Under the pieces are notes generated by a model. That model saw only the letters and a program-made list of their open reading frames with translations. It had not been told where the DNA came from and ran no database searches. The position numbers and the translations under genes were made by a program. From Psammoneis japonica (Eukaryota), in assembly GCA_008632985.1 (NCBI GenBank), contig QPGO01000241.1:1-64000 (forward strand): a stretch of 64,000 nt of DNA. The letters are read 5' to 3'. Positions 11,841 to 51,072 of the stretch are shown here, in pieces (the first letter of the stretch is position 1; the number at the start of each line of letters is the position of its first letter).

Positions 11841-11959
11841 CACAAAGATTGACCAACACATGACAAATGCAATGCAGCTGCAGCAGCCAACAGCCAACTG
11901 GCACCAAAAAAGACAAAACCTCTGAAAGCACCTCTCCTGCTGAGCAAGGATGACAGATG

Positions 11960-23647: not shown

Positions 23648-23933
23648 GGGCCTTTAGCGGCACTTCTAAAGCTGTTGCTGGTAACAGGATGTTCCAGCAA
23701 ATTAAGAATCGTCGACATGAAAATCAAGGACATTGTCGAGCTCGAACACAAGCACCTTGATTTTGATCGGGAAAAATGGACGAATTCACAGGGCCTTTAG
23801 CGGCACTTCTAAAGCTGTTGCCGGTAACAGGATGTTCCAGCAAATTAAGAATCGTCGACATGAAAATCAAGGACATTGTCGAGCTCGAACACAAGCACCT
23901 TGATTTTGATCGGGAAAAATGGACGAATTCACA
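23648..23933. repeat. 143-bp direct tandem duplication downstream of LamG copy 3
   Basis: gggcctttagcggcac...gaattcaca at 23648-23790 and 23791-23933, differing at one CG/TG site. Confidence 0.9.
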
Positions 23934-24179
23934 GAGTTGAGTGAGCAAATTTTACACGATTTACGTTGACATTATTTGATGCAACACCAAGGAAAATTAG
24001 GAATCAAGGTGCCCATTCGGCACAACTGTCACGAGCGAATCCCACTGTTCACACAACACGAATGAAACTCAACCATCCAGTCAAAAACCATGTCCATCCG
24101 TTCTCTCACTCTTTTAAATCATTCTTTCAAATTGGTTGGTTCAACAACAAATTTGCTCTGTTTCAATCCACTTCTGAGA

Positions 24180-25817
24180 CTAGCGGTTCCGAAACATTTC
24201 CGAACGGATTTCATCTTGGCTTAGACCTCTGTCATAGACGCGGACAGAGTCTAGGTAGCCATTAAAGTAACCATCACTAGCCGCTCGAGTCTCGCGATAT
24301 CTTGAACCAATGTTCAACGGTGCCTGATTGGCACAAAAGCCCTCAGAGGTCGGAATCGTGCTCTCGCCAGATAGCTCTCCATTGATGTAGATCTTCAATT
24401 CATTTCGGCTTTTAGTCACAACAAGATGGGTCCACGTATGGGCTGGAATCTGTCTCGTGCTGTCGATGCTGAAAATGTTATCAGACTTACAACCACCGAA
24501 GTAGCCCCCCGCCCTTACAATGCCGGTCTCCTCTTGAATTACCATCCAAAAAGCACCTGCCTTCTGAAAGATGTGGTGATTGCGGTATTCGGCCGTTGCA
24601 TTTTTATTTGTAATAACGGGAGTGTACCGAGCCCATGCCATCATGGAGTACTCATCCATGTTCAGATTCTTTGCTTGCTGAACGAGCATGTGGTCATCCT
24701 TGCCATCGAAATGACCTGCACTCTTGGAAAAGCCAACACTGTTGGACTGTGGATCACCATATCCTCGAGTTGCGTCCCACTCGAATTCTCCTGAGTCTGT
24801 GTACAGGCCCATACCCTTGCCCTTGACTAAAGCATCCTTGGTCCAAACAGCTCGTTGGTAGTTTTTGTTGCTATTCAGGTCTATTGTGGAGCCACATCTC
24901 CATCCACCACTGTTCCCCTTCGTGTGCCAACAGAGACGTTTATTATTTGCAACTTTGAGGTTGGTGTCGCATGACATCTTACGCACAGAAGATCCAGCGG
25001 GAGAGAATCCCATGCTCCAGGCATCGTTGAAATACCACTGAATGGCGCCATCCTTTGTTACTTTGTTATTATTACCCTTGCCGGTGTTAGTGAAAGCCAA
25101 ATTTGTGTTTCCAAATCCAACAAGCGTCCAAGAATCAGAGCTCGTTTCAGGGCGGCAACCATACATCACGTAGTCACCTCCACCGCAAGCTGCCACGATC
25201 TGATCATCAACTTCATTCAAAGCATCACTGTAAATGCCTGAGTAGCACAGAGTCCAGCCCTCACTATCAATCTCAGACTGGTACTTCTCTTCGGCAATAC
25301 CAGGGACAAAATGATCAAAGGTGTATTCAAGGATTGGTCCATCACATGGTTTGAAACTGGGGAGACGGAATGATTTCGTGGAAAGCTTCACACGGTTCTT
25401 GCCAATAAAAATGGGGGTGTCATCCGGTGAGTTAATAGACATGCATGCGCCTCCTTTCTTCAAAGCAAAGTCAAACCCATCCACGTCACGTTTTCCCACG
25501 GCAAGGGTGAAATTCGGAGGGTTGAGCTCGTCGTCTTCCTTTTCAAGGAGCGGGGATTTCTTGCTGTGTCTGACGCCATTGGCTTTATCCGCTACCAATG
25601 TGCCAGTGATTAGTGCTGTGTTTCCACCAGCAACAGCACGCAGACTCCAGTTATCGGAAAAGCACTTCCTAACAAGAAAGATGCCGTTGTCTTTCCTCTT
25701 ATTCAGATTGCCAACATCACCGCATTCTGGTACTGCATCAGTGGAAATGACAAATGGTGACTTCATCCAAACCGATGAAAGGACTACCGGTAGAATGCTG
25801 TGGTAAGTGGCTTTCAT
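24180..25817 (-). CDS. Secreted LamG-domain protein, paralog of 14010-15641
   Basis: Intact ORF with the same architecture. ATG of MKATYHSIL at 25817. Confidence 0.85.
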   Translation of the reverse strand: MKATYHSILPVVLSSVWMKSPFVISTDAVPECGDVGNLNKRKDNGIFLVRKCFSDNWSLRAVAGGNTALITGTLVADKANGVRHSKKSPLLEKEDDELNPPNFTLAVGKRDVDGFDFALKKGGACMSINSPDDTPIFIGKNRVKLSTKSFRLPSFKPCDGPILEYTFDHFVPGIAEEKYQSEIDSEGWTLCYSGIYSDALNEVDDQIVAACGGGDYVMYGCRPETSSDSWTLVGFGNTNLAFTNTGKGNNNKVTKDGAIQWYFNDAWSMGFSPAGSSVRKMSCDTNLKVANNKRLCWHTKGNSGGWRCGSTIDLNSNKNYQRAVWTKDALVKGKGMGLYTDSGEFEWDATRGYGDPQSNSVGFSKSAGHFDGKDDHMLVQQAKNLNMDEYSMMAWARYTPVITNKNATAEYRNHHIFQKAGAFWMVIQEETGIVRAGGYFGGCKSDNIFSIDSTRQIPAHTWTHLVVTKSRNELKIYINGELSGESTIPTSEGFCANQAPLNIGSRYRETRAASDGYFNGYLDSVRVYDRGLSQDEIRSEMFRNR

Positions 25818-26792
25818 CTTGACTTTCAGTTTCACAATCGAGACGATTAAGCTTTGACTGTGACAAGAAGGCTCTTTTCTCGACCAAGCCTCTATCTACT
25901 CTCTAGTCTGGTTCGAGGATTCCGAAACATTTATGAATGGTGCAACTTAGCATGATTCTTTTTGTTCTTTCCTCCCATCCAAACTGCAGGTTATGCAGGG
26001 TATCGCATTTTCTCCGCTTTTGCTGCCATCGGCATGTTGCGACCGCGTGCGCGTGCGAGTAAAAAAATCCGAGTACTGCTGTTCTACCGGCCGCCCGGTA
26101 GCAGTAGAGTGGAGTGGTCTGTGTTTGGTCAGTGTGTGGAACGTGTGGGGAGCACAGGAGGAGAAGCCTGATTGGCTTGTGCAATGTTGTCTAATCACAG
26201 GAATGACAACGTAGAAACGAGTGCATCGACAAGACAAAGTGTTGCGGCACAGGCTGTGACACTACATCAGCATTTGTTCACTTTGTCAGAGCCACGGTCT
26301 GTTGTTGAGCATCCGAGTGCAATGAAATCGTCATCACGCGGGCATGAAACAAAACGACACGCGCAGTCGTTCGTTGCTGTGCAGAACCACATGGGTGTCA
26401 GCCACAGAAACAGCACTGGGTTCTGCGTGTGCATGTCATGCAATGTCAGATTTTGTGATGAATGCAAGCCGACCATGAGAATCACCACGGCTGAAATGGC
26501 ACCACACCTGCGAATCAACAGTTTTTTGGACATGTGTGACAGGCATCAAACTGAGCAGTGTGGGGTGGCATGCACAGAGCGTGTGCTCATTCAGACAAAA
26601 TGGCATGGGGTGGCCTCTTGTTGCCAGTTGACTGCATGGACCTGTTGCCATGGCACTCGCAGAGCATTCAGTCTCCTGTTCGCACCCATTGTGGGACGAG
26701 TCTCACAGTCACTGCAACTTGAGATTGTCTTCATGACACAGGAGGCATGGCAGCAGCAGCAGCAGCTCAAGGTTTGGCAGCATGAGCCATGT

Positions 26793-27277
26793 GCACTGGC
26801 ACAAAAATCACGTAGAATTTTTGCGTAGAAAAAAATCACAAAAATCAGGGTTTGGGCCGACATTTTTCTCGTGCTTCTGCCGTGCTTCTCGGCTCCACCG
26901 ACGCCTCAAGGAATCGTTTTCCCTGAAACCATTGACACTTTGCATGATGACATTTACATGAGCAACACCATTCTGTGCATGAACACTTCAAAATTCCATT
27001 TTCAGAAATTTGATCAGCACTTCACTGTGGTCCCACCACGGCGAACATCATCCAATTGTGGAATTTTGCCGAACGGTGGACATCGTCGTGTTTGTCATCA
27101 AAAAGCAAGTGTGCAAAGTGTCAACCATTATGACTGAAATCGATTCCTTGAGGTCGTGGCCCATTTTTCGCAAAGCATGATAAAAGCACAATGAACAAGA
27201 CATTCTACGTGAATTTTCTACGTGAGTTTTGCACCAGAAATCGGCCCAAACCCTGTTTTTCGGGGCCCATGGCCCCT
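26793..27277. mobile_element. Putative MITE inside the copia 5' region
   Basis: Inverted motifs CAGGGTTTGGGCCGA (~26846) / TCGGCCCAAACCCTG (~27241) and CACGTAGAA / TTCTACGTG. Flanking inverted AGCCATGTGCA / TGCACATGGCT. Ends uncertain. Confidence 0.5.
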
Positions 27278-30200
27278 GCACATGGCTTGTTGGCACCCGC
27301 AGTGGACGTTGATGATGTTCTGCAGACATGTGGTGTTGCTGACATCAATGCAAGAGCTCACTTGGTGCATCATGGTGGATTTGCGACACTGGAGAACATT
27401 GCAGTCATGGAAGGCGATTCGGACGTGGAAGACATGGCAAACAGGGTTGGCCATCGTGCCAACCAGATGGGAGAGTGACACTTGGCACTGTCCAAATTAA
27501 GAATCTACAAGCTTTGGTCTGGTGGCTTTGTGATCATTGGAAGCATGACCTTGCATTGGATGCAGAGCACTGTTTAATCAGGCAGCACCAGTTGATGCTC
27601 GCCAGAAGAAGCGCATGGAAAAAGACATGGTTGAATCAGAAGCATCGGCCAGCTCATTGCCTGTGTTCAAGTTGGAGGATTTTGACATGATGGAGGATGC
27701 ATTTCTGAACCTCTTGTCACAGAAGGTTGGGACACTGAAAGAACCATTGCGTCATGTGGTGCCGGCCACATTTGTTGACACAGTTGAGCAGCGCATGTGT
27801 CAATTGGCTTTGAATGGGACGGGATTCAATCAGGATGATTGCACTGTGCATTGTCTGTTGAAAGCTTGCCTGGTGGACACAGAAGCAGTGACATGGATTG
27901 AGGCCTGCAATGGCACAGAGATGCTTTCTGGGCATGGGCAAACCCATTCAATGGACAGGGAGAGCTTGGCAAGTGCACCCAATTGCCATCAGCAATCACC
28001 AGGTTGTTGCACTGCAAGAACAAGCACCACTTGTTGTTTGAATGGTGCACAGCAAAACTTGCCAGTGCATTTGCATTTTTGGCAAAGGATGACCAGCACA
28101 AGACAGACAGGCAGAAAGTTGAGATTCTCCAAAGAGGGATTAAGACTGACAATTTTTGGCTGCAGGCTTGCATTCCCGTGATCAGTCAGCAGTGTCCTCG
28201 TGACTTTCCTGGCACACAAGCATTCTTTTCCACTGAAGTTTTTTGCTCACATGGCACATCTCAGTTAGAGAGGCTCAGTGTTGTTCAATGCATGAGATGC
28301 CGGAAATGTCCCGTGAGGGAGGCCCAGGTGGGGGCTTTGCTTGAGGTGGTGGTCGAGGCCCCCAAGGAGGTGGTGGTCAAGGTTGTGGGCCTGGAGGCTG
28401 TGGCAGGGGACGATTCGGTGGCAGGAGAGGTGCAAGTGCAATGATCAAGCATCTGAACCCACTTGTGCCTTTTCCCCAGATAAATGGCAGCAACCAAGGT
28501 TCAATGGTGGCCAAGCGCATGTCATGCAAGCCTGTGAGCAGATGGCCGGATGTGGTGGTGGTCCCAGACGTGGACATGGTGGCCCCGGTGGATGACAGGT
28601 GGCTGGTGCATGCCAGAGACCAGACAAATCAACACAACAACAACGGGAACAGCCACCAGCTGATGTGGCAAGTGCAGGGCGTGGACGTGGACACGAGAAT
28701 GAAAAAGGGGGCAGACATGGAGCAGGTTTCAGTCGTGGAGCCTGCACATGTACCTGACGGTGTGGGGTGACAGCCACTTCAGCTTTGCTTGCATGTCACA
28801 CAAACATGATTGCATTGTCTCTGCTGTTGTCACTCGTGCCATCTAAACCCCACCCAAACAACACCACAAAGAGCTTCCAAAGGATTGAGGTGACCTCCAA
28901 AAGATTGGTGCAATCAGTGAATGCAATGGCAACCCCAAGCGATGCGGTTCCTGGTCATGTGTCCCACAATGAATGTGACACCCATGCAGACACGTGCTGT
29001 GCAGGAGCAAACTGGAACTTGATGGAGACCACCAATGAAATGTGTGAAGCAAGTCCATTCCTTGAATTGTGTGATCCAGTTGAACATGTCCCAGTTGCGC
29101 GATGTTGCACTGTTTGGACAGATCCAGATGCGACGGACAAATGCTTGTTGGTCGGTGACCAGATGCTGTGGTTCAGACAGCAAATGGAACATTCCCTTTT
29201 CAACCCAAATCAGTTGCAAGCACACAACATGTCAGTCAATGACAACCCTTGTGATCCCCATGAAAGCTTTGGCATTTCAACGGAAGAAATCTTTGTCCCT
29301 TTTCATGCCACGGGGACGGTTGTGTCTTTTGAGTCTTGCGCACCTGCAGAATGGGAAGAACAGAATTTGCCAGCCACTCTGCTTGCAGGTGACACTTGGA
29401 ATCCATCGGAAGTTGACATGGGTTTCCTGAATGAGGCTAGAGAGCAACAGGAGATGCGGGCCATCCAATCATTGACGTCCCACTTGCAAAAGTCAGAAAT
29501 GTCAGAGCCAAGAGTGGAGCGAGACAAGTCTGCGGTGGTCCAATGGAGAGAAGTGGAGGAAGCCATGGCAAGCATTTCCCCAATTCATCACCTTCAGACA
29601 TTTTGTGACTGCATGATTGCATCTGCAAAGATCGCATGCACCTGCATGGAGGACATTGACAAGCTGGAGCAGAAAGTCTCGGAACTTCACACGAAGGATC
29701 GGCACTCAAAGATTGCGGCAGAAGAGCTGGCACAGAAATGGAATGTTGGCCAAGATGCGGCTCAGCAAGGTGTCAGGACAGCAATGCAATCATTGTCAAG
29801 ATGTGTTCAAGTGGACCATTTGGATTTACACCAGAAGAGACTGAAATGGACATGGTTTGCTGACACTCTCATTTCAAAAGTCAAGTCCATTCTCGGCAAC
29901 ACTTGTGCCAATGTTTGCACCCAGGGAAAGTTTGTGAAGGTCATCCCAATGGCAGCTTGGTCAGAAGCGGGACGATCACTGGTTGAGTTCACGGATGATG
30001 TTGGAGTGCCCAAATTCTTGTTAACGGATGGGGCAGGAGAATTTGCTGGCAAGAATGTGGACTTTGTCAAACATGCGAGGTGCATGCGTGTGCAGCTCAG
30101 GAACTCAGAACAAGGCAGGAAGAACCAAAATCACGCAGCAGAATGGGAGATGGGTTTCCCAGCTGAGCTTTGGAGGCTGCAAATGAACAAGAAGAAAGTT

Positions 30201-31925
30201 CTGAAATGATTGTGGGAATCACTGTCGAGAATGGTGCAAGGGCGCGACAGAAGGACCCAACATGAAGAAGCAACAGGGCAAACACCGGAGATCAGGGAGT
30301 GCCTAGATTTTGGATTCTGCGACCCAGTTTGGTGGTGGGATGGACCCAATTCAAAGCCAAGTGCAACTGAAGATCCTGGACAACTCAGGAGGTGGCTTGG
30401 TGTGTCACACAAGGTCAGATCGGACATGTGTCATTGGATTGTAACCAAGAGCGGCAAGTTGGTGTCCAAGACTTCAGTGGAGCACATTGTGCACGCAGAT
30501 CATGTCAAATTGGATAAAAGGAAATGGATTGATGAGTTCAGTGAGGCTTTGACGAGACGGTTGGATGATGCAAACTTTGTCCTTGAGGGCGATGAAGTGG
30601 TCCTAGCATTTTGCTTAGATGATTGCGCGATTGACAAGGACAGTGGAGTGCAGCATGAAGGATGTGCAATGCCAGATGACAAAGAACATGGTGACATGCC
30701 AATGGATGATGAGCGCCCCGATGTTGATGACAAAGAGGCCACAGACCAGTGGGTTGGCATGGAACTAATCCTTGATGTTGGAACAGAAGGAGAAAGACGT
30801 TGTGCAGTCACAAAGAGAGCGAGAGGTCACAATGGTAAACCAACAGGAAGGAGACACCAGAATCCACCATTTGGCACAAGGGAGTGCAAAATTGAGCATG
30901 CGGATGGGACCACAGACAAGCACACCACGAGTGTCACAGTGTAGAATGTGTTTCCTCAGGTTGACGACAAGGGTCATCAGTTCTCTGTTTACATGAAGTG
31001 CAAGACCACAGGATGACACGGGAAGCAATCTCAAAGGATGGTGGTGCAGTCGAGACTGCAGTGGGTCAGAGTGAGAAGAAGACAACAACAAAAGGTTGGG
31101 AGTTGCTGATGGCATGGAAAGACGGCAATTCCGACTGGGTCAAGTTAAAAGACATCAAGGATTCTGACCCCATTGAAGTGGCAGAGCATGCAGTGGCTGA
31201 TCGGATTGCTGATGAACCAGCATTTGCTTGGTGGGTGCCTCATGTGCTGAGGAAGCAGAACAGCATTGTGTCAAAGGTCAAGTCAAAGTGTTGGCAAATC
31301 ACTCACAAGCTTGGGGTCAAGTTGCCAAAGAGCATTGATGAAGCATTGCAGACAGATTGCAAAACAAGGAGATGACTGAGGCAAAGGCAGCATGGGAAAT
31401 GCAGCATGCCTCGCCACTGGACAACATGGCGAGACCGTGCATGAGCCTCTTGTGCGTGGCAACGTAGTGTTGTCAACACGCACCTGGGAAGCACGACCAC
31501 AGGAGGGCGTGGCTCCAGGTCTTGGGCAATTCCAGAAGGATGCTAAGAGAGCATCCGTGTGAAGCACACTGGCCCATCGTCTGGCCCACGATGGTGGCGT
31601 GATTCCACACGATGACATCACTCGTGCATGGCGCGTGATGGCTTGATTCGCACGATCCACAATGCGAACGCACGATCGATTTAATGCGATCCAAATGCGA
31701 ACGAATGGGGATTTGGCAAGATTCCCTGTTCGCACGATCCCATTTTCTCTACTCCAAACTAGCTCACAATTTTCACAACGACAAAGTCGTAACACATCTT
31801 CTTTTTCAGCGCCTGGCACATGCATGGGGCACAGCAACATTGCTCCCGCATGTTGTGCGAGGTAACGAAATCTACAGAAACGAAACTACGAAATGTTGGC
31901 AGGACCGACAAATCTCAAAACGACC

Positions 31926-32969
31926 ATGAAGAAGCGGACCAAGCCGCTGATTCCATTCGCACGGCCGGAGAAGAAAGAGCCACAGCAGGGCGAGTGCCAG
32001 ACGTTCAAGCTGCGCAACAACCCTGCTGATCCAGACAGTCCAACGCACGAGATGGGCATCCTGCACCTTTCTGCGGCTACATGCGAGACACTCCCAATCT
32101 TTCTGCGCAACGTGGATCGCGTGCACAAAGGACAAAACATCACGACCGGGCCAGCGAAATTTGCCCTTGTGCGTGACCTGCTACAGGGCGATGCTCTGAC
32201 ATCATTCAATGATGCCGCTGACAAGCAGGCATCCCAAACCAACGCCACGTGCACAGCATGCGTTGCGAAGCTAAAGGAAGGCATCTTCCCAAATGGGGCG
32301 GCACCATTGCAGAAGCGTCATCTGCGGCGCTTCATGTGCAAGCCCGCAGAGGTTTCCACTCGTGACTGCATTGCGAGGGCTGTTGAAATTAACGGCTGTG
32401 TCTCTCAGTTTCCACCCAGGATGGAGGATGGAGAAACACTGGCACCATCACCCAATGATGAACCACGCGACATGTTCGAGTGCGGTGTGCCGAACGCATG
32501 GCAGAAGTTCATGACGCCACAGAACTTTGACCCGTTGGCGCATGCCATCGCCGAATTTGTGCAGTTCTGTGAGCGCATCGAGCAGGTCGAGCTTGCCGAA
32601 GGTAACCAGGACCAACATGCCAAGGTTCCACGCAAGCGGGGATGTAGAATGGACAATCCTGAGTCGTTGATCACGACCCAGCGGAACACCCAGAAGTCGT
32701 GCATGCTGCACGGGACCAACTGTGGACATGATGTGGAAGATTGCCGTCAGCTCAAGCACCACGTGAAACGTGTCAAGACTGGACATTCCAATGACGGAGG
32801 CGGCAAGCCTGACACAAAACCTCGGAATGAGGAAGATGTCAATGCTCTCATCGGATCGAAGGTCGAGGAGTGCTTTGCCAACGCTCAGAAAAAGCGCAAG
32901 GCCCGCGAGGAGGAGCTCAATCACTTCCGCGACCTCAACTTAAGTGATTCCGAAGATTCGGACGCCTGA
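31926..32969 (+). pseudogene. gag: Gypsy gag (open frame but Tyr-free)
   Basis: FKLRNNPADP..., LQKRHLRRFM, zinc-knuckle-like CMLHGTNCGHDVEDC. No Tyr in ~348 aa. Confidence 0.8.
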
Positions 32970-35900
32970 GAAGGGGGCCGACACGATGCAGGTGGTTTTA
33001 ATGCATTGGACGAATGTGCAAATGAACAACTGAATTGCCATCGTACACATGTTGTGGGCCAATCCCGCAAATGAGTTAAAAAGACTCATCTCACTCCAAT
33101 CTTGTTTGCAGCTGTGAATGCCAAACATGGCAAGGGCAAGACTCAAACCATCAAGGCACTACCAGACAGTGGCGCCAGCAGCACTCTACTCGATGGTCGA
33201 CACTGTAAACGTCTGCGAAGCCATTCAACGGCTGAGACAAACTGGACTACGGTGGCAGGCTCGTTTAGTACGTCTAACGACTGTACCGTTAAATTTCGGT
33301 TACCAGAATTATCCGAAACTGCAGAACTTGAGCACACCGTCCACGTACACAACGGAAAGTTGGGCAAGTACGATATGATTATTGGACGTGACATTCTGGA
33401 GACACAAGGCATTGACATTGTCTTCTCTAAACAGATGATAGAGTGGCCATTAGTCAATGGAGAAGTGCCAATGAGGCACGTAGATGCTACGGTGGAAACC
33501 TCCTTCTATCTTCAAGATCCAGAAGCCTTATCTTCGGAAACTGACCGGATTTCGCGTATTTTAGACGCTAAGCACGCGCCGGCCTGCCTCAAGGACATAA
33601 CGCGAGAGGCAATAGGACTTTCTATGTTCAACAAAACGACCTTTTGGCACTATTGAAACGCCATGAGTCCTTATTTGATGGGACATTAGGAGAATGGAAG
33701 GGAGAACCCTACCATATCCAACTCAAGGAGGGTGTAGAACCATGCCACGCTCGTCCGTGTAAAGTACCTCGTGCGTACGAAGCTACGCTACGTAAAGAAG
33801 TAGAACGCCTGGTGCGCATCGGTGTTCTCAAACGCGTTAACAGATTCCAATGGGCAGCTCCATCATTTGTCATGCCGAAGAAAGACTTAACGGCACGCTT
33901 TGTCAATGATTTCAGAGAGCTGAATAAACGGATCAAGCGATTGCCTCATCCGATTCCTCACATCCAAGATGTGCCACTCAAGCTCGAAGGCTTCATGTGG
34001 GCTGCATCGCTGGGTCCAAACATGGGCCATTGTCATGTCCGATTGGATGCTGACAGCAAGAAGCTCTGCACGCTCATCTTCCCGTGGGGCAAGTGTGAGA
34101 TGCAGGTGTTGCCCATGGGGTTGTGCAGCTCGCCAGACATTCTCCAAGAACGCATGTCAGGCTTGTTTGAAGATCTGTCGTTCGTTCGAACGCACTTGGA
34201 TGACCTTCTCGTCGTGACGAAAGGCACCCATGAAGATCACCTCAACAAACTTGAAGAAGCTTCACTGAGGGTCCAGAAAGCATGACTAAAAGTCATGCCA
34301 CTGAGTCTCACTTCTGTCAAACCCAATTAGAGTGCTTGGGTTGTCTGGTCAACAGAGACGGAGTGTGACCAACACCTGACAAAGTCGACGCCATTGAGCG
34401 AATCGCGACCCCAACCAACAAATGCGACCCACGTTCATTTGTTGGCATGGTGAACTGCCACCGCGACACGTGGATCAGACGTTCTGAAGTCTTGGCTCTG
34501 CCAACACGACTCGCAAGCGAGACTGTCAAGTGGGAATGGACGTCCGTTGAAGACGAGGCATTCGAAACCGTCAAACGGGTGATGTCGGATGATGTTTCAT
34601 TGTCACATCCTGATTTTAACAAACCCTTTGAGATGCACACCGATGCCTCTAAATGTCAATTGGGAGCAGTTGTGTCCCAAGACAATGAACCTGTCGCCTT
34701 TCACAGCAGAAAGCTTGACAATGCGCAACTAAATTGTGCAACAACGGAGAGAGAATTGCTCGCCATTGTGGAGACGTTGAAAGAATTTCGAACGATTCTC
34801 CTTGGTCATCATGTGATCATGTGTGCTGATCATAAAAATCTGTGCACAAAGCACTCAATGCCGAGCGCGTCATGCGCTGGCGGCCAACATGCGAAGAACA
34901 CGGTCCCGAATTATGCCATGTCAAGGGCACCCATGACCCAGTCGCTGATGCTCTCAGTCGCCTTTGACCAGCCACCAGCTTGCCTTCCGAGGCCAATCCG
35001 GATGTAAAAGACACTCCATCGAGTCGTCCTTTGCATGAAGCCTTTAATGCAGATGCTCAAGATGAGCCATCTCTGCCTGTTGGCTTCAAGCGCATTCAAA
35101 AAGCACAACAAAAGGACAAGCGCCTGCTCTCACGAGCTGAGGACTCGTCCGACTGCTCCATTCGTGCGCATCGTGGGGGAGGGTCATCACGACAGTTGAT
35201 CTGTCATAAGGACAAAATTGCAGTGCCACAGTCATTGCAGGCTCCGCTAACTGAATGGTGCCACGAGACACTGTGTCATCCAGGTGAGACACGTGCGGAA
35301 ATGTCCATTGCCCAGCACTTCCATTGGCCCAGTGTGAGGTCTGCGGTGCATTCTACGTGCGTCAAGTGCGATCGATGCCAGAAGACAAAACGCCGAACGC
35401 AGCGTTGTGGGAAGCTGCCAGAAAAGGTCGCAGAGACAATTCCATGGGAGACTCCATGCATGGACATGACAGGGCCATGTAAAATTCAAAGACGCGGAAA
35501 GGACGCCTTGCAATTGTGGGCAGTCACAATGATTGACCCAGCAACCGGGTGGTTCGAGATTAAAGAAGTGTCTGCGAAACGCGCAGACGTCGCAGCAAAC
35601 GTCGTGGAACAAACGTGGCCATGCAGATGTCCGTGGCCAACCCAGGCAGTTTATGACCGTGGGACAGAATTTATGGCAGAATTCAGCCAGATGATTAAAA
35701 ATGACCATGGGATTTTGAAGAAACCCATGAGCAAACGGAATCCACAGGCAAATGCCACAGTGGAACGTGTGCACCAGACACTTGGCAACATGGTGCGTTC
35801 CTTTTCAGTGCAGGATGTGGAACTGGACGAAGATGACCCATGGAGTGGCATCCTCTCCGCAGCAGCCTTCACCATCAGAGCTGCGGCACACATGACCACG

Positions 35901-36224
35901 CGTGCAAGTCCCGTGCAATTGGTCTTCGGACGCGATGCGGTTTTGTCTGTTGCCCATCGTGCTGAGTGGAAGCACATAGAAACCAGAAAGCAGAAGCTTG
36001 TCCACTTGGACAACAAGCGTGAAAATCAGAAACGGAAGGAGCATCAATGTGCCGCAGGGCAATTGGCACTTGTCAAACAGGAACAATCCTCTAAATGCGG
36101 TTCTGACAGCCATGCAGGACCCGCCAGAGTTGTCCGTGCACATGACAACGGCGCGTTGCGCATCCAGAACGGAGCGCTGACAGACACGTGTGATCTACGG
36201 CAGATTGTACCCCATCACCAGTGA
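32970..36224 (+). pseudogene. pol: Gypsy pol (PR-RT-RNaseH-IN), frameshifted
   Basis: PR ALPDSGAS and DMIIGRD; RT RFVNDFRELN, LPMGL, RTHLDDLL; RNase H HTDASK..LGAV..TTERELLAIVE; integrase zinc finger H..H..C..C, DRGTEF, NPQANATVER. Confidence 0.92.
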
Positions 36225-39029
36225 GACATTCTGTCACTTGACGGCCCTGATCATGGGGGAATGTGCAGTGTGCCTCGCTGCTGGACAACACGGCGAGACC
36301 GTGCATGAGCCTCTTGTGCGTGGCAACGCAGTGTTGTCAACACGCACCTGGGAAGCACGACCACAGGAGGGCGTGGCTCTAGGTCTTAGGCAATTCCAGA
36401 AGGATGCTAAGAGAGCATCCGTGTGAAGCACACTAGCCCGTCGTCTGGCCCACGATGGTAGCGTGATTCCACACGATGACATCACTCGTGCATGGCGCGT
36501 GATGGCTTGATTCGCACGATCCATAATGCGAACGCACGATCGATTTAATACGATCCAAATGCGAACGAACAGGGATTTGGCAAGATTCCCCATTCGCACG
36601 ATCCCATTTTCTCCACTCTAAACTAGCTCATAATTTTCACAACGACAAAGTCGTAACACATCTTCTTTTTCAGCGCCCAGTGCATGCACAGGGCAGAAAA
36701 GCATGATGGTGAAACTCTGCAACAAGTTCATGAAGGGAAGAGTCAGAAACTGCATGGACATCAAGAGACACAGTGCCACATGGTGTTTGACATCAAGATG
36801 GACATCACCCGCAAGGCCAGGTTTGCAGCTGGAGGTCATGCTGCAAAAGCACCGGATTCAATCACGCACTCAAGCATTGTCTCGAGGGACAGCACACGAA
36901 TTGCTTTTGTGCCAGCAGCTTTAAACGACGTGGATGTCACTGTGATCCACTTGGAGAATGCTTGCTTGAATGCGCCGTGTGCAGAGCAGATATGGTTTGA
37001 AGGTGGAACTGTGTGTGGCGAGTTCAAAGGGTGCACACTGGTTGCAGTGAGATTGCTTTGTGGATTGAAAAGCACAGGGTTTTTGTGGCAATCAGCATTT
37101 TCTTCTGCTTTGCAAGACACAGGTTTCACACCAACACAAGCAGATCCCGATGTGTCTGCAAGCAGCAGTTTGCGAGGATGGGCACAAACATCATGAGATG
37201 CCATTGGTCTGTGTTGATGACGTGTTGATGACATTGCATCAAGGCAAGTCAGTTGTCAAGTCCATTGCCAAGCATTGCAAGGTCAAGCCTGGGAGTGAAG
37301 GAGAACCCAAGACTCATCTGGGAGCAATGACAGAGAAGATTCAGACACAGGACAGTCACATGATTTGGGCCAGTTCGCCTGAGGACTGCATCAAGAATGC
37401 AATTGAGACAGTTGAAAACCTGCCAAGTGAGGACGGTGATGGTGCAGTCTTGAAGAACAATGTGAAGGACCCATTCCCAGCAAAGCACAAGCCAGAGCTG
37501 GATGTGATGAACGAACCAGGTCCTGATTTGATGTCCCGGTGTTTGAAGCTCATTGGAATTGCGAGATGGGCGATTGAGTTGGGCTGCATTGACATTTTGC
37601 ATGAAGTGTCCTTGCTTTCTTAATGTCAGGTGAACCCAAGGAAGGGCCACTTGGAAGCCTTGTGTCATGCATTTGTGTGCATGAAGAAGCACCCGAGCCA
37701 AGGCAGAGTCAGATTTGATCCCAAGAGTCCCAAGATCAACGAGTTTGTGTTTTTGACAGTGTGGCAGATTGGACCAAATTTTGTGGCAACATCGAGGAGA
37801 GTTGCCACCTAAGATGCCCAAGCCACATGGAAACCTGGCAACCATGCACACTTTTGTTGATGCAAGTTATGCTGGAAACAATGTTGCACACAGGTCACAC
37901 TCCGGCATCATTGTCTTCGTCAACAATTCTCCGATCATGTGGTTCAGCAAACGGCAGAATGCGGTTGAGTTTTCTGCTTTTGGGAGTGAGTTAGTTGCGA
38001 TGCGCATTTGCAAGGATGCGCATGTTTGGAGCACTGCTCAATGGGCCGGCAAATGCATTTTGCAACAACTGTGGTGTGGTGAAGAATGTCAGCATTCCAG
38101 AATCTACATTGCACAAGAAGCACAATGCAGTCAACTGTCATGCAGTGGAGAGGCAGTTGCAGCCAGAATTGTGAGAGTTGGAAAGGAAGATGCAAAGATG
38201 AATTTGGTGGATCTGTTGATGAAGCTTGTGACAGGTGAAAAGCATTGGCAGTTGTGTTCATTCATCTTTTGGTGAAGTCCATTGCAGCCAAGGTCCAGGG
38301 CTTGTAACTCGCACTCATGCCTTGTGATCTCCCAAGCCAGACCAACTGGTGGCAAATTGGGTTTGTGTTTTGCCTCTCAGGGGGAGGATGTTTTGAGCAG
38401 ATGAACCAACACAGCCATGTCGGCTCGTGGGGACCAAGTGAATCCCAGTGGAGTGGTCTGTGTTTGGTCAGTGTGTGGAATGTGTGGGGAGCATGGGAGG
38501 AGAAGCCTGATTGGCTCCTCATGTGACATCCAATTGCACAGGAATGACAATGTAGAAATGAGTGCATCGACAAGACAAGGGCAAGAGTGTTGTGGCACAG
38601 GCCATGACACTGCATCAGCATTTGTTTGAATCTGGGGCTGGAGAGCTCTCCAGTTGCTGGATGGGCTCAACCACTCACAATCTTTGTGTGACAACATGAG
38701 TGCAGCCAACAAGATGCTTCTGGGCCTGTTGCAACTGCCAAAGTCACAACAAGTGAACATGTTTCATGGTGATGAGCTGTTTCCCTCCGACACCACGTCA
38801 CAGTTCCACCACTTCAACTTTTAGAGCACAGAACACAAATTCCTGATGCTCTGGATTTCACTCAGTCCCCTTGAAATGTTCCTGGCAGACTTGACACTTG
38901 ACAGGGACAATTCAGCCTGATGCTGACCCAGTGTCTCCTGAACAACAATCACAATCTCTGAGCATGGCCCAAACCCTCACCAGGGAAGAAAATCACCACC
39001 GCTCCGCATGTCAAGCTCAATGCATGAAT

Positions 39030-40640
39030 TTGTCTAAAAGAAAATTCTGTCCAATGGATGACACAACCTTTGTGAACAGATTGCTCAGGTTTGTCTCCGT
39101 CCCTTCCTTCATGATCCTAACTGTCCTCGCAGCAACAGCTTTGCAGTTGCGGTGACACGCAATGGAATGATGCTTCTTCTTGAGTGCAGACTCAGGAAAA
39201 CAGAGCAGTTCTTGCAGATGGCCTCATTGTCACAAAAGACATTCATTGGCCCTTTGATTGGTGCACCAAACATTCGGAGCTCATGTTGTAGACCCTCCAC
39301 AATCTCAACAGCACTCTTGAGCACAACAATCTCAGCCCCGAATGTGCCAGCCTCCACAGCATTCTGATGTTTTGAGTGCCACATGTGTCCGATTGACAAA
39401 CATCAGTGCACCTTCGTGGCTGCAATGATTGGCAACATTGCCAGCATGGTTGGCATCCACAAAACAATGCATTGATGCTGCATTGCCTTGAGCAGGCGGT
39501 GCATTGGTTGGGATGGCTTCCGTTGCATCTTGGCAGAAGTCATGCCAATCACACTTCATGAATCGTGATTCATCTGTCTTTGGATGTGCTGGGTCAAATG
39601 CAACTTGGTGCTTTGGAGCCTGTTTAAGATGCACAAAGACACGCAGCACTTGTTTTAGATTGCCAATGCAAGGCAGCACAAGGTGAGCAGACATCAATGA
39701 AACTTCCAAAGTGCACATCCACTCTGCCGAGTTCTGTGGCCCAAACTGGCACGCCAGTCAACTCTTGGTGGCAGTTCAGTCCTTCAGCATCTAACTTGCC
39801 GGTCGTGTCCAATTTGGGTTTGCACCCCCACTGCTCAGTGGGGTTGTTTCCTTGCTGGGCAAATGTTTCCCTTCCTTGCCAAGTCTGTCCTCGACATTCT
39901 GAACAGCGGCTTTGCAGTGCTTTTCTGCAGATGTTGCCCAACAGGTGGTCCCATCAGTCAGAGTCATCTTTGACAGTGAGGTGCCAAGGCAAGAATCTGG
40001 CTCAGCTACCTTGTAACCCTTGAGCTTGAACTTGGACCTGCTGATGCCATCCACTGTCTTCCTTCATGGGTTCGTGACTGATCAGTGGCACGTCATCAAC
40101 ACAAACCATGACACATTTGCAGTGCTTGAATCCATTGGGTTTTGCTGCAGGTCTCATCCATGCATCTGGACTGGCCTTGCTTGGTTTGCACCCTGGATCA
40201 CACAGTGTCTCCACTGGAAATGCTCTGAGCGCTGCTCCGGAACTCTTTCATCCGCAAAGAGCCCTGACCACAATCATGATGCAGCCTCTCCATCCTTGCC
40301 AAATTTGGAGCCTGCATGGGTCCAAACCTTCTCCCTGCAAGGGGCAACAAGGTGGGTGTTCTGGACATTGCATGCAAAAACTTGCAAGTCATTGAGTGTG
40401 GCAAGCATCAGTGCAATTCTCGCCAAATCTCGAGAGACGACTCAGAAGAGCAGGTGTGTGATGTGTGTGGGGGGTGCAGCAGTGTGGCCTCCTTCTGCCA
40501 TGCGAGCTTTACGGTGGAAGTTTTCTCCCATCTTGACATCAAAAATCACATGGCACTTCACTTCCTGGAACCCAGGTGCCATGTCATCAAGCTCCCCTCC
40601 ACACTTTTCAAAAGCAACCCATGCATTCTTCATCTCCATG
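39030..40640 (-). mobile_element. Decayed copia RT-RNase H fragment on the minus strand
   Basis: EMKNAWVAFE..CHVIFDVKMGENFHRKAR, VCVDDV, FVDANHAGN, WHSKHQNAVEAGTFGAE, VFCDNEA. Confidence 0.87.
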
Positions 40641-40818
40641 CTCCTTCTTCCTTTGAGTCGCGCGTCTGTCGCGCATCGGCATTTGACAGATGCTAACAAC
40701 ATCAACAATAGTCCCAACAATGACCCAGCACTAACTCCGCCGCTTTTTCAACCTTCTCGTTGTGTGTGTGTGTAACAACTCTCTTTCTCTCTATAACATA
40801 TACCTCCACAACACCACC

Positions 40819-42147
40819 ATGGTTCGAATCAATAATGATACAATGACTCTCCCCCGACTCCGTCATCATCGATCCAAGTTTTCGTTACCCCTCAAACTTT
40901 TGCTGTGTCTCTTGGCATTTTCCCTGCTGCTTGTCGCCTTTTCCATAAAATCGTTGCAGGCGGCGCAAGACAACATTTTACCACCGGGATTGCGACGAAT
41001 CTCGCAACAACAAATTGTGATTGGTTATGCCGTTTCCGTGACGGGTTGTGGATCAGATCCCATTACCGAGGGAGCGGCCGTGTTGAAGCATTCGATTCAT
41101 CTCGCGCATAGTCGTAGTCCTCGTCGTTATGGATATCAAATGTACGCCATTGTTCATCCCAATGCGACCTCGTGTGCGGCACCACTGGCGGATTTGGGAT
41201 ATACGCTACTGAGTCGAGAAACTCCCGTGGCACTACAAGATATTCGAGGCGACTTTTTGCGAGAAAAAATTCATACCAATGGTTGTTGTGGAGAAAAGGA
41301 GTTGATCAAATTGGAAGCCTATACACTTGTACAACACCCACTCATTGTTCATTTGGATCTCGATACATTAATTCTCAAACCACTCGATCCAATTTTTAAC
41401 GTCATGTTGATGAACAATGCCACCACGGTCCATCCAACAAGTGTCGACGCCATGTGGCCCGAAACACCACTGCCGAGTCGTATCGATGCGGTCTTTACAC
41501 GTGATTACAACATGGTGAATCCCTCAACACGATACAAACCCGTCCAAGGTGGGTTTCTCGTGCTTCGTCCATCGTGGGAGACCTATCACGAATTTGTCGA
41601 CATTGTCAAGGAGGGTGACTTTCGACAAGGCAAGGGATGGGGTGGAGAAGTTGGACCGTTTTATGGAAGCATGACGTTTCAGGGACTCATTCCATATTAT
41701 TATGACTATCTGCATCCCGGCAATACGCTGGAATTGAATCGCTGTGTGTACAATCAAATGTGCGACAATCCCCGTGACCAACGAACCGTCAATGATGTGG
41801 TGCACGGCAATTGCCGTGACGGACGCCAAGACTGTGAAGATTGTCGAAGCCGACCCGTATCGGATGTGGCCACAACGCACTTTACGCTATGCCAAAAACC
41901 GTGGGGCTGTCTACCACAAGATCAAGACATGATTCAACACCGACTGTGTCGCAAACTCCATCACGAGTGGTTTCGGATCCGATCGCAATTGGAACAGTCG
42001 TGGGGAAGGAGTGGATATGGGACGGGGAAGTTTCAGAAGGATCACTTTTATGGATACTGCACCAAGGCGGGGCAGCCGGGTTATATCCCCATTCAAGTGC
42101 CTGCTGGACTGGAAAACAATCTGCGCAAACGAGAACTTTTGCACTAG
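40819..42147 (+). CDS. Type II membrane glycosyltransferase, GT8/glycogenin-like
   Basis: N-terminal TM helix (LKLLLCLLAFSLLLVAF). ELIKLEAYTL..IVHLDLDTLILKPLD (DxD motif), QGGFLVLRPS, QGLIPYYY, HFTLCQKPW. Confidence 0.82.
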   Translation: MVRINNDTMTLPRLRHHRSKFSLPLKLLLCLLAFSLLLVAFSIKSLQAAQDNILPPGLRRISQQQIVIGYAVSVTGCGSDPITEGAAVLKHSIHLAHSRSPRRYGYQMYAIVHPNATSCAAPLADLGYTLLSRETPVALQDIRGDFLREKIHTNGCCGEKELIKLEAYTLVQHPLIVHLDLDTLILKPLDPIFNVMLMNNATTVHPTSVDAMWPETPLPSRIDAVFTRDYNMVNPSTRYKPVQGGFLVLRPSWETYHEFVDIVKEGDFRQGKGWGGEVGPFYGSMTFQGLIPYYYDYLHPGNTLELNRCVYNQMCDNPRDQRTVNDVVHGNCRDGRQDCEDCRSRPVSDVATTHFTLCQKPWGCLPQDQDMIQHRLCRKLHHEWFRIRSQLEQSWGRSGYGTGKFQKDHFYGYCTKAGQPGYIPIQVPAGLENNLRKRELLH

Positions 42148-42667
42148 TATGTTGAGGGACGGTGTCACGGGTATGGTGGAATCAGCAGGACAAAGAAAAA
42201 ATACAGTGCTCAAAAAATCGTCACTGTACAAAAGAGCCATTGAAAAAGCACAAATCAAAACTAATATATTGCAACCTGCGTTTAAATGTCAACTCACGCA
42301 GATTCAAAAGTACAAGCCACTGCCATAGGGCTCTAGCTAGCTACTCTCTAGTAGAGGGAGGGAGTATTTGTAGTGCGGTAGCCGTTTTGGTGTGGCCGCG
42401 CGGTCGATTGGCCAAACATTCACTGCAATGGGGTTGTCGGACCCACGCCACACACCCCAAGGCAAATGGATTTCCGACTTAGTCACCAAGTCTGTAAAAT
42501 CAATCTAATAACATTACACGACTCCTCCCAGCCGCTGCCTCTGAACGAAATGATCAGTCGCCTGCATGTTCAGTCTCAAGACTTTCATAACCTCATTGTG
42601 TCCTTTTTGAAGTCGCTCGGGCGTTGGAAGCGCCTGTCCCATTATGTTCTAGCGTAGAGCCATCATT

Positions 42668-43443
42668 TCAACGGTGAGTCTGAAGTACATTTAGCAAGTC
42701 AAACTCTCCACCCATGAATTTAAGCCAGTTGTGTGCAACTTCGCTATTCAATGCTGCTTCATCAAGTCCATCGGTAGCCTTGAACGGTCCAATGTCGGTA
42801 TAAACTACTTCCACATGTGTCACAGTTTGTGGCCACCACTCATCGTCCTCCTCCTCGCACTCGTCATCGTCGTCATCATTCTCCTCTTTTTTCTTTGTTT
42901 CAAGCTTCAAAGTGTAGGTTGCACGATGATGCTTGCTATCGCAACCCGACACGACTCGGATTGTGTCGCCATCAAAAAGATCAACGTGGGAACAAATGTT
43001 GTAAGGTTCCTCGTTCGAAAGTTCCTTTGCAAACTTACGAGCCTCCGTAATGGCGCGAGAACGATTGTGATGGAACAAGATCTTTCGAATCTTGGAGTCT
43101 TCCACGATGCTAAATACCTTCCATCTTGTGATGGGATCTCCACGGGCTCTTCGAGCGGATACTCGTGCGCGTCAAAGGTAAAGCCGTTTTCTTCTGTATG
43201 AATAAAGTACTTTCCGTCCTCCCGTTCTTTCGCGTTTTTAAATGGATTGGAATAGCCTCCATAATATCGGCTTGCATACGCTTGTGCCGAAACTTTGGCA
43301 AAGGCCCTTGCGTCTTCCAAGGAGCAAAAAACTCTGTTGGCATCGACCACCTCACCAGCCATGTCTCCATGACTTCCACTGTAGCGCGCCAAATATACTT
43401 TGGATACTACAGCCGTTGTATTGCCAGTGTCAGACGACGACAT
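42668..43443 (-). CDS. Hypothetical protein split by an apparent 1-bp frameshift near 43110
   Basis: Two overlapping Tyr-containing ORFs (42907-43473 and 42668-43105) join as ...DGRYLA|IVEDSK... if one base is added. No recognisable family. Confidence 0.5.
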
Positions 43444-44111
43444 GTTATTGTTGCACTGCTTGTGGCTTGACAAAAAGTCGAGCTACAAAGTGTCCAAAAA
43501 TTGCTTCAAGAAGTGAGAAGGCGCTCTTCATGGGGACACCATTTCTCAAGAAAAAACTTTATGGCTCTCGCCAAGACTTACATTTTTCGATCCCTTACAA
43601 GGTGTATAACAACACCTGACACTGCCAACCCCTCTTTCTACTTGCTGTTCATACACACCGGTACATGAGAGAAAGATCTCGATCTTTTGTCCGTCCGTCC
43701 TTACAGTACGGTAGGTACCTACCGTATCGTATCGTACTGTACCGCCTCCAGCCTTCCTGGCAACGAACAGGCCGCCACCCACCATCTTTCGCACGATTCA
43801 AAGATGGCGCCGTTTTGTCCGTCCTACTTGATCCTACGTACCTTGAGATTGACAAATTTTCCATCGATTCAAACAAAATCTCCGACCCCACGACTCAAGC
43901 CTGATCATTCATGTATATTTGTTTACTAAGATGATAATAAACATAACTGATTCTTAAACCATGTAAATGACATTCTCACGACCGCATAGTTGCGCGCCAA
44001 AATCAAGCGTAAATAAACTTCAGTTGCACCAGAGTTGCCCAGAAAATGCGTTCTTTTCGCTTTTCGCAGCTTTCATAAGAATACCGCAAAGCCAAAAAAG
44101 CAAGATCGACC

Positions 44112-50439: not shown

Positions 50440-51072
50440 AACCAGTTGGTCATCGGGCTGTGCCACTGGTGACAAAGAGGAGTTGGCACCAGCACAGAGC
50501 AGACAATGGAAGAGACATTGCCCAAGCCCAAGTGGAAGGCTGCACAAAGGCCGATGGCATGGGCAGGCTGCAATGCATTCACCGGCTGACAAAGAAGACC
50601 ACATGGACAAAACCTGAAAATTTTGATGAGCAATGAAAGGCCCACACAAGAAATGGAAGAAAACAACAAGCAATGACCAGCATGATGATCAACGCACCAC
50701 CACAACAGCCACTGCCACAGGAGAGCTCCCATTGATGAAGCAGAGGGTCCAAAGCAAGAGTCAAAAATTGCAGAGCCCACAACACAGTCTGTTTCAGAAA
50801 AGAGGAAAGAAGAAGAAACCCCAGCTGCACCAGCAAAGTTGGGTGCAAAAGTGCTGCCACAAGCCAGACAAGATTGACCAAGAGTTCCGACAGGAACACC
50901 AGTGGCACACACAAGAAACACCACAGCAAGGTCACAACAGTGCCAGGATTGATGATTGTGTGCACCACACTTGTGGTGGTGATTCCTTTGTTGGTGCTCA
51001 AAGGCAGCATTGATGAGGACAAGAAGAGCTCATCTGCAGGCTCCTTTGGCTCTGAGGCTGTTTTGCCAACTG
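50440..51072 (+). pseudogene. Decayed 5' fragment of the WW-TM-CA gene (third copy)
   Basis: Aligns with 44170-44790 and 57420-58060. GRLYYFH->GRLQCIH, then KKTTWTKPE, VVVIPLLVLKG..KKSSSAGSF. Confidence 0.88.

Follow-up and report, generated by a model that had tools for sequence, protein, structure and literature searches.

How does a retrotransposon lose most of its TpA dinucleotides while keeping its CpGs? The question is raised by a Ty3/gypsy element at 31400–36695 in the first 64,000 nucleotides of contig QPGO01000241.1 from Psammoneis japonica (GenBank assembly GCA_008632985.1), a 64-kb stretch that we refer to as the window. The initial annotation of this DNA described the element as CpG-rich but largely without TpA and as nested in an older element, and both descriptions hold: its observed/expected (o/e) ratios for the two dinucleotides lie far apart (Table 1), and it interrupts a heavily decayed host element. 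The annotation further proposed that TpA conversion is a fast process, separate from a slow decay of CpG. We conclude that the window has probably undergone an A:T→G:C hypermutation that acts after integration, is confined to 5'-TpA-3', and affects transposon-derived DNA together with some of the duplicated DNA adjoining it.

Conversion of TpA after integration

The timing of the loss can be read from long terminal repeats (LTRs), the two copies of which are identical when an element integrates. We located LTR pairs by a BLAST search of the window against itself, aligned them, and sorted their differences into TA-type (TA against TG or CA), doubles (TG against CA), CG-type (CG against TG or CA) and other. 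Between the gypsy LTRs there are 26 differing positions, which resolve into 19 events: ten TA-type differences, seven doubles, two CG-type differences and none of any other kind. A second element, which we call LTR-b, has a pair separated by six TA-type differences, four doubles, eight CG-type differences and one other. Taken together, the two pairs hold 16 single TA-type events and 11 doubles against one difference outside the classes; with singles and doubles added, 17 TA-type events separate the gypsy LTRs and ten the LTR-b pair. When 26 random substitutions, 80% of them transitions, were placed on the gypsy LTR in 20,000 simulated trials, the class of other differences averaged 14.7 and never fell below five, against the zero observed. 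Since the LTRs were identical at integration and now differ at TA sites, TpA was lost after integration and at the DNA level. The doubles would be the expected outcome of a single ancestral TA converted on opposite strands in the two LTRs; they cannot derive from CG, because the CpGs of the gypsy LTRs are nearly all intact (30 shared, two changed).

Counting also the hidden sites at which both copies reached the same outcome, we estimate about 28 TpAs in the gypsy LTR and about 16 in the LTR-b LTR at insertion, where composition predicts 23 and 16.5. As these contents are close to expectation, the source copies were not depleted. About 0.68 of the TpAs have since been converted per LTR copy, with ordinary differences at 0 of 432 positions in gypsy and 1 of 278 in LTR-b. 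The conversion is fast, as had been proposed, and the LTR counts suggest that TpA changes at least two orders of magnitude faster than background, a comparative estimate and not a per-generation one.

The direction of the change is from TA to TG or CA. We aligned a hypermutated Laminin_G_3 paralogue (c1) three ways with its two clean copies (c2 and c3), which are intact and are matched by Pfam Laminin_G_3. Only six of 46 ancestral TA sites are kept in c1; 26 have become TG and 14 CA, and the 40 altered sites thus all carry one of the two single transitions. The 53 ancestral CG sites comprise 31 that are kept, 11 that have become CA and nine TG. Other dinucleotides are 90–96% kept, and the exceptions, AC/GT (0.73–0.76) and AT (0.86), overlap TpA sites. 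In two segments, p1 and p2, aligned pairwise between the hypermutated stretch 16037–17375 and its clean counterpart 3365–4706, TA is kept at 0 of 31 and 0 of 10 sites and CG at 3 of 36 and 5 of 19 (pooled, 0 of 41 and 8 of 55), and 25 of the 36 CG sites of p1 are now TG or CA.

A comparison with other copies of the gypsy family, found in contigs from a sequencing run, covers 40 listed variant places. The window has TG or CA where TA stands elsewhere at 22 of them and TG or CA against CG at ten, while three show the reverse and five are of other kinds. For a protein outgroup we defined conserved Tyr columns as those where 60% or more of 40 related pol proteins have Tyr. The gypsy integrase has replaced all 12 of its conserved Tyr residues, 11 of them by Cys or His (eight Cys, three His, one Ala), and the eight in RNase H have become four Cys, two His, one Thr and one Ser; Phe, Trp, His and Gly columns are retained in gypsy pol. 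Paralogues, other family copies and protein outgroups all agree on a TA→TG/CA direction. The window copy of the element is dead, since its integrase Tyr columns are lost and its pol is split over several frames. The claim that gag contains no Tyr needs a small correction, as its open reading frame (ORF) has one Tyr in 367 residues.

The loss is restricted to particular tracts. The window has a G+C content of 49% and is a patchwork of gene tracts and TpA-poor tracts. We profiled dinucleotide o/e ratios in 128 bins of 500 bp, of which 55 are heavily depleted (TpA o/e below 0.12), 33 intermediate and 40 normal, with sharp tract edges. The gene tracts at 40501–46500 and 56501–64000 have TpA o/e of 0.59 and 0.68 and CpG o/e of 1.01 and 0.92. 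Between genes, TpA o/e falls to 0.02–0.1 and TG/CA o/e rises to 1.7–2.1, and in the transposon tracts TpA o/e is 0.03–0.09, against the 0.59–0.68 of the gene tracts. Intact ORFs coincide with spared stretches. The host element and the tract at 5–13 kb are depleted in both dinucleotides, in agreement with the initial annotation (TpA 0.03–0.09, CpG 0.17–0.42).

Table 1 Positions and composition of the features discussed in the text.
Feature	Position	Strand	TpA o/e	CpG o/e	Remarks
Gypsy 5' LTR	31400–31831	+	0.26	0.96	432 bp; TG...CA ends
Gypsy 3' LTR	36264–36695	+			432 bp; 94% identical to 5' LTR
Gypsy internal region	31832–36263	+	0.31	0.88	78 TA, 262 CG; TG o/e 1.55, CA o/e 1.35
Gypsy gag ORF	31866–32966	+
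Gypsy protease (PR)	33075–33653	+			Pfam Asp_protease_2
Gypsy reverse transcriptase (RT)	33572–34282	+			Pfam RVT_1
Gypsy RNase H	34369–35004	+			Pfam RT_RNaseH_2
Gypsy integrase (INT)	34968–36221	+			Pfam Integrase_H2C2, rve
Spared island in gypsy (PR to RT start)	33160–33926	.	0.85		767 bp; normal TG/CA counts
Host element, 5' part	26108–31399	+	0.09	0.42	candidate LTR 26108–26278
Host element, 3' part	36696–38626	+	0.07	0.32	candidate LTR 38447–38626
LTR-b element	51757–55667	+	0.18	0.66	LTRs 278 bp: 51757–52034, 55390–55667
Old hypermutated tract	5001–13500	.	0.03	0.17	17 TA in 8.5 kb
Old LTR-b-like copy	~11561–11860				inside tract 5001–13500
c1, hypermutated Laminin_G_3 paralogue	1–1760	-			clean copies c2 (14084–15840), c3 (24254–26025)
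Hypermutated homologue of GNAT acetyltransferase gene region	16037–17375	.			clean counterpart 3365–4706

The gypsy element is identified as Ty3/gypsy by its TG...CA LTR ends, by a 4-bp GAAA on both outer flanks that represents the target-site duplication, and by the order PR-RT-RNase H-INT; its coding region is broken across several frames. The family is highly repeated in sequencing run X1, with a summed word depth of 10,000–32,000 against about 70–570 in the flanks, and 5574 contigs of this run resemble the element at 90% likeness or more, with 168 of 189 variant places being transitions. One variant, X2, lacks 708 bp of gag (31888–32597) and retains many TpAs.

The host had been called a copia element. 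The order and strand of its parts fit this and Ty1/copia is the probable identity, with each individual match being weak. RVT_2, the copia-type RT, is found at 36657–37193, directly behind gypsy, at E = 0.0014 and 18.7 bits, below the Pfam cut-off; the ORF at 28758–30206 has an Atlas lead, to be read as a lead only, to gag_pre-integrs/rve clusters (score 0.88); and the candidate LTRs are 84% identical, differing by four CG-type changes, three doubles, two TA-type changes and seven others that all fall within one 10-bp stretch. The LTR-b pair, given as 277 bp in the initial annotation and measured here as 278 bp, is intermediate as stated there, with eight CG↔TG/CA differences. The LTR-b element has no recognisable pol and is possibly non-autonomous; at 54112–54890 it contains an array of 42-bp tandem repeats that has a higher-order unit of 272 bp, within a 599-amino-acid ORF that has no Pfam match.

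A Pfam search with ORFs of the old tracts and the host element returns nothing at E ≤ 0.001 and one weak RVT_2 match at E ≤ 1. In heavily depleted tracts (e.g., 5001–13500 and 26500–31400) TAA and TAG are erased and TGA is the sole remaining stop. There are 83 stop-to-stop ORFs of at least 150 amino acids in the 64 kb, overlapping on both strands and many without a Pfam match. Long overlapping ORFs on both strands arise because TAA and TAG have been erased, and in the heavy tracts gene calling is likely to pick them up.

The genes of the window are long ORFs without interruption. By Pfam, the gene tracts encode a kinesin-14, two WW plus alpha-carbonic-anhydrase genes, and Laminin_G_3 genes. 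For the kinesin, 13 matches are named among the 120 listed; they include Triparma and the diatom genera Seminavis, Nitzschia, Thalassiosira, Skeletonema, Cylindrotheca, Aulacoseira and Attheya, at 48–58% identity, while several of the named rows carry no readable organism. Mainly these matches, together with an Atlas taxon note, point to an ochrophyte and most likely to a diatom. The WW plus alpha-carbonic-anhydrase pair is present as two copies of normal composition that are 86% identical (44079–46253 and 56802–59572), and a third copy is a hypermutated fragment at 50446–51071. The Laminin_G_3 and GNAT acetyltransferase regions belong to a segmental triplication (1–4706, 12853–17375 and 21063–26038) in which the hypermutated parts are not the same in all copies. 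Copy 1 carries a dead Laminin_G_3 gene, which copies 2 and 3 have intact; for the GNAT acetyltransferase region it is copy 1 that is intact and copy 2 that is hypermutated. The triplication retains one intact copy of each gene.

Site, strand and order relative to CpG loss

The alignments of c1, p1 and p2 contain no TA→CG double conversions. A strict requirement for a 5' T fits this, because a change on one strand ends the status of the site as a target. TG and CA outcomes are balanced, at 54 and 41 of the polarised sites and 3041 and 3171 in the heavy bins, and strand-coordinated clusters of the APOBEC, ADAR or repeat-induced point mutation (RIP) type are absent (19 runs against 19.2 expected; dispersion χ2/df of 1.08). 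Such balanced, unclustered outcomes argue against an effect of the transcribed strand. Among the 44 sites at which TAC is read on one strand but not on the other, the TAC strand was the altered one in 36 (p = 3e-5), and the preference is seen in five of six data subsets. Each event is thus a change of one base on one strand with an asymmetric preference for its flank, TAC→TGC or equivalently GTA→GCA. Following TAC, the next base is A in 13 cases, T in ten, C in nine and G in seven, and thus a preference for TACG (G at +2), which we sought as a mimic of the tRNA-Arg anticodon loop, is absent.

The TpAs that survive in heavy tracts follow a pattern of their own. TTAA is enriched 5.2-fold and CTAA/TTAG 4.1-fold, while ATAT, ATAC and ATAG are nearly missing. 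The ranking of the +1 base obtained from these survivors (T>C>G>A) fails as a predictor of strand choice (32 against 25), and survival of a site and choice of strand obey different rules. Homologous copies have been mutated at one place and spared at another (c1 against c2 and c3; 16037–17375 against 3365–4706), which suggests targeting by location or domain and not by homology. The LTR differences show no excess of C→T at dipyrimidines. Ultraviolet photoproducts, polymerase-eta errors at WA and GC-biased gene conversion can be set aside by reasoning, as they are not strictly specific for TpA or not purely transitional.

In every comparison, TpA is lost ahead of CpG. The retained fractions of TA and CG are 0.32 and 0.97 in the gypsy LTRs, about 0.33 and 0.81 in LTR-b, 0.13 and 0.58 in c1, 0 and 0.26 in p2, and 0 and 0.08 in p1; the old LTR-b-like copy at 11.6 kb keeps 1 of 8 TA and 0 of 16 CG of the young LTR-b pair. 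The two young LTR pairs also show that the processes are partly uncoupled. Visible TpA conversion is equal, at 24 of 42 LTR-sites in gypsy and 14 of 24 in LTR-b (p = 1.0), whereas CpG conversion differs about six-fold, at 2 of 64 against 8 of 42 (p = 0.013). Across the 128 bins, 19 combine low TpA with high CpG (TpA below 0.3 with CpG at least 0.6) and none shows the reverse. The proposal that TpA conversion is a process separate from CpG decay is supported by these counts, as is its companion that both converge on TG/CA, which is seen in the c1, p1 and p2 alignments.

The idea of two clocks survives in part. The order, TpA and then CpG, stands; a steady TpA rate fits poorly, as the two LTR pairs have lost TpA equally at different CpG ages. 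Likewise, the two depletions scale together in rank, with a Spearman correlation of 0.83 between TpA and CpG o/e over the 128 bins, but not in proportion, since the lead of TpA is not constant. Equal TpA loss at different CpG age, together with the untouched island within the gypsy element, suggests that TpA loss is burst-like or patchy and not clock-like, and these comparisons speak for an early TpA process of that kind, probably followed by a steady CpG decay.

CpG loss takes the form of CG→TG/CA transitions in transposon and duplicate tracts (20 of 53 sites in c1, 25 of 36 in p1) and is presumably deamination of 5-methylcytosine. Per available strand context, the loss is 0.27 where T precedes the C, 0.18 for A, and 0.09 each for C and G, figures that are rough because the pooled sets (1–1760, 16037–17375 and both LTR pairs) differ in saturation. 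This WCG bias recalls the TCG-type hypermutation of some basidiomycetes.

Environmental relatives provide a view beyond the window. Searching metagenome contigs with an alignment of pol yielded 54 related loci, among which the TpA-erased signature occurs in four, all at 49–52% G+C: L036 (TpA 0.02, CpG 0.24), L050 (0.04, 0.20), L045 (0.27, 0.75) and L044 (0.29, 0.63). In L036 the conserved Tyr columns hold six Cys, two His, one Phe and no Tyr, while Tyr is kept in five control loci; L050 and L045 have 19 and seven stops in one frame, and their Tyr columns are uninformative. The four loci share 44–48% protein identity with the window integrase and have no DNA match to the window. The window's own sequence is not found among the metagenome relatives, the best DNA identity being 76% over 88 bp. 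Many other environmental loci combine strong CpG loss with normal TpA, such as L009 (TpA 0.82, CpG 0.08) and L028 (0.76, 0.00), and also L020 and L023. The two decays are thus separable across organisms, TpA erasure being the rarer.

Comparison with known systems

A similar process has been described in the alga Bigelowiella natans (Mettrop et al., 10.64898/2026.01.13.699255). According to the accessible text of this preprint, an integrated giant virus and a virophage together acquired 231 mutations, of which 230 are A→G or T→C and lie without exception on TpA; mutation-accumulation lines give about 6e-7 per site per generation, in some lines only; and a set of low-TpA coding sequences is enriched in RT and DDE domains. 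The preprint proposes an ADAT2-like adenine deaminase, and its main text is without the words CpG, flanking, trinucleotide, diatom and stramenopile. Judged from the accessible text, the likeness to our window lies in an A:T→G:C change only at TpA, giving TpG or CpA, in foreign-derived regions, at a rate far above background, and with a trace of low TpA and high TpG plus CpA. The two cases differ in their hosts and targets, as B. natans is a rhizarian with single-copy viral inserts, while here an ochrophyte carries LTR retrotransposons and duplicated gene copies. They also differ in extent, the TpA o/e of 0.03 reached here being near saturation compared with the 0.45 reported for the B. natans nucleocytoplasmic large DNA virus (NCLDV) region, and in kind of evidence, as the B. 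natans mutations were seen de novo and ours are read from standing sequence. On this comparison, the process in the window matches that of B. natans in kind, in a second, distant lineage and at near saturation on retrotransposons. What the window adds is the evidence from LTR pairs, the place of TpA loss in time with respect to CpG decay, the preference for TAC, the resistance of TTAA and CTAA, and the lack of strand clustering. Full-text searches, with subscription journals outside their coverage, returned nothing on TpA hypermutation beyond this preprint, and the accessible text of two papers on diatom transposons (PMC2806351 and 10.1101/2025.10.24.684338) makes no mention of hypermutation, dinucleotides or deamination.

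The fungal RIP of Neurospora and others is likewise a dinucleotide transition hypermutation at the DNA level that disables transposons and can reach adjoining or duplicated genes. However, RIP makes TpA from CpA and TpG, lowers GC and creates stops, whereas the process here destroys TpA, raises GC and removes TAA and TAG. RIP also hits all copies of a duplication, while here c1 is mutated and c2 and c3 are spared, and 16037–17375 is mutated and 3365–4706 is spared. We reject RIP as an explanation, as the direction is opposite (TpA o/e 0.03–0.09, TG/CA 1.7–2.0) and not all copies were hit. Decay of CpG driven by 5-methylcytosine would account for the slower CG→TG/CA component that is present here, but it leaves TpA alone and occurs alone in many environmental relatives.

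Editing by ADAR or APOBEC proteins also produces deaminase-type transition clusters in retroelements, and ADAR favours a 5' U. These enzymes act before integration, are strand-specific and leave the same edits in both LTRs, whereas here the LTRs differ and DNA other than retroelements is affected. Editing of RNA or cDNA before integration is rejected on the 17 and ten TA-type events between LTRs, the balance of TG (3041) and CA (3171), and the absence of runs.

Mechanism, competing explanations and consequences

The behaviour of the process can be summed up as follows. Each TpA is altered on one strand, to TpG or CpA, after which the site is final. The strand reading TAC is altered preferentially, TTAA and CTAA/TTAG resist, and overall the two strands are hit equally, site by site. 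About two-thirds of TpAs are lost before one ordinary LTR substitution and at least 95% in old tracts, with a slower second process converting CpG to TpG or CpA in the same tracts and sharing the TG/CA endpoint. As for mechanism, the chemical step is most likely the work of a targeted deaminase, as proposed for B. natans, which would turn the adenine of 5'-TA-3' in duplex DNA into hypoxanthine; this would pair with C so that replication would fix A→G. Targeting may be directed to silent or foreign chromatin and not by homology; silent chromatin is suggested because the edges are domain-like, the loss is located together with CpG decay, and intact genes are spared. The action would be burst-like.

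The natural target of tRNA adenosine deaminases, A34, is invariably preceded by U33, and these enzymes thus have a ready-made 5'-UA-3' specificity. The substrate of bacterial TadA reads UAC, and evolved TadA deaminates adenine in DNA in laboratory base editors. TadA and ADAT2-ADAT3 therefore share the 5'-UA-3' context with the process seen here, and the UAC of TadA matches the TAC preference, but the window has no +2 G preference. We know of no natural DNA-directed adenine deaminase activity of such a kind shown in algae. Recognition of the U33-A34(-C35) type would explain both the TpA rule and the TAC preference. A fuller hypothesis, which we put forward tentatively and which may well not hold, is that chromatin-directed adenine deamination of DNA (a "reverse RIP") is an old trait shared among SAR algae (ochrophytes and chlorarachniophytes), acting in bursts soon after integration through a tRNA-deaminase-like U33-A34(-C35) recognition of its sites.

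Several observations weigh against the reading of a post-integration hypermutation at TpA, or against parts of it. First, TpA loss in the gypsy element holds overall but is not uniform. The spared island (Table 1) has 44 TA and 101 TG+CA, compared with 52 TA and 853 TG+CA over the remaining element with its LTRs (Fisher p = 5e-16). Without the island the internal region has a TpA o/e of 0.17, and the island's edges are less than 100 bp wide, with about 85% of TpA gone from the flanks. Such an island is at odds with independent conversion site by site; it could reflect protection, subsequent gene conversion templated by an unmutated copy, or a mosaic that arose when a family of high copy number was assembled. 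Second, for many gag sites the other gypsy copies agree in most of their depth with the window's TG or CA, and at the 17 sites listed TA-bearing variants account for 1–56% of it. Some of the internal loss of TpA may thus go back to a progenitor that had already been mutated, or hits may have recurred in a large number of copies. Third, TpA is its own reverse complement, and A→G cannot be distinguished from T→C on the opposite strand; a thymine route fits equally. Finally, the counts all come from one 64-kb window, with two clean LTR pairs, one three-way paralogue set and 95 polarised sites; those on family copies come from the 40 listed of 195 variant places in the contigs of run X1/X2; and run X1 is possibly the source sample of the assembly itself and hence not independent.

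The thymine route deserves attention first among the alternatives to adenine deamination. Hydroxymethyluracil in dinoflagellate DNA lies preferentially at TpA and TpC, and 5-formyluracil causes T→C. By this route the thymine of TpA would be enzymatically oxidised to a base of the 5-hydroxymethyl- or formyl-uracil type that mispairs with G, giving T→C in the context 5'-GTA-3'. As TpA is palindromic, all our counts fit T→C at GTA equally, and nothing in the sequence opposes it; we consider this route unlikely, and the accessible text of the B. natans preprint (10.64898/2026.01.13.699255) favours an ADAT2-like adenine deaminase.

A single deaminase or repair pathway of dual specificity, fast at TpA and slow at CpG, would make the two processes one clock running at two rates. 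The rank correlation of 0.83 over the 128 bins and the sharing of tracts are in keeping with this, as is the dependence of CpG loss on the base before C, the loss being highest after T (0.27), lower after A (0.18) and lowest after C or G (0.09 each). ADAT2 editing of both A and C in DNA is cited in the accessible text of 10.64898/2026.01.13.699255, and a refractory fraction of TpAs could mimic a plateau. A single machine is nonetheless difficult to reconcile with equal TpA but unequal CpG conversion in the two LTR pairs (2 of 64 against 8 of 42, p = 0.013) or with environmental relatives such as L009 and L028 that lost CpG and kept a normal TpA. The same preprint, as far as its accessible text goes, places 230 of 231 B. 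natans hypermutations at TpA and reports none at CpG. We judge a shared machine to be quite improbable.

Could the depletion have been inherited, or selected before insertion, through RNA or cDNA editing or through escape of the gypsy lineage from a TpA-directed defence? The family is highly repeated and related contigs mostly share the window's TG or CA at many gag sites. Against this stand the 17 TA-type events between the LTRs of one element, whose TpA content at insertion was normal, and the like alteration of a gene copy outside transposons and of further duplicated DNA. The window copy is also dead (11 of 12 integrase Tyr columns are Cys or His, and pol is frame-split), and the balance of TG and CA, without clusters, is unlike strand-specific editing of RNA or cDNA. 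Inheritance as the whole explanation is very unlikely. An artefact of sequencing, assembly or polishing, through miscalled modified bases or a mosaic of repeat copies, is hardly credible: the island in a very high-copy element could be such a mosaic and the sole run containing this stretch may be the assembly's own source, but seven listed unitigs (386–763 bp) at single-copy depth (58–77) match the TpA-free flanks with 0–2 differences, unlike systematic long-read miscalls, the changes are meaningful at the codon level (Tyr to Cys or His), the signature recurs in unrelated metagenome contigs, and de novo mutations are reported from Illumina-sequenced lines of another alga in the accessible text of 10.64898/2026.01.13.699255.

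For the elements themselves, conversion of TpA rewrites Tyr, Ile (ATA), Val (GTA) and Leu (TTA) codons and removes TAA and TAG stops, so that it is missense changes that disable them and both strands gain long ORFs free of stops. For genome analysis, this means that dating by LTR identity is badly inflated in such genomes, as illustrated by a gypsy pair that is 94% identical without any ordinary substitution. Transposon annotation fails where Pfam matches vanish in old tracts, and gene finders may call false long ORFs as genes once TAA and TAG are lost. The order of TpA first and CpG later offers two partly independent marks of age for each insertion. A TpA-directed mode of defence is known from one 2026 preprint on one species, and a second, distant lineage suggests that it is widespread among marine algae and makes the enzyme findable by comparative genomics. 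Such an enzyme would amount to a naturally occurring editor of adenine in DNA, and one whose motif is defined.

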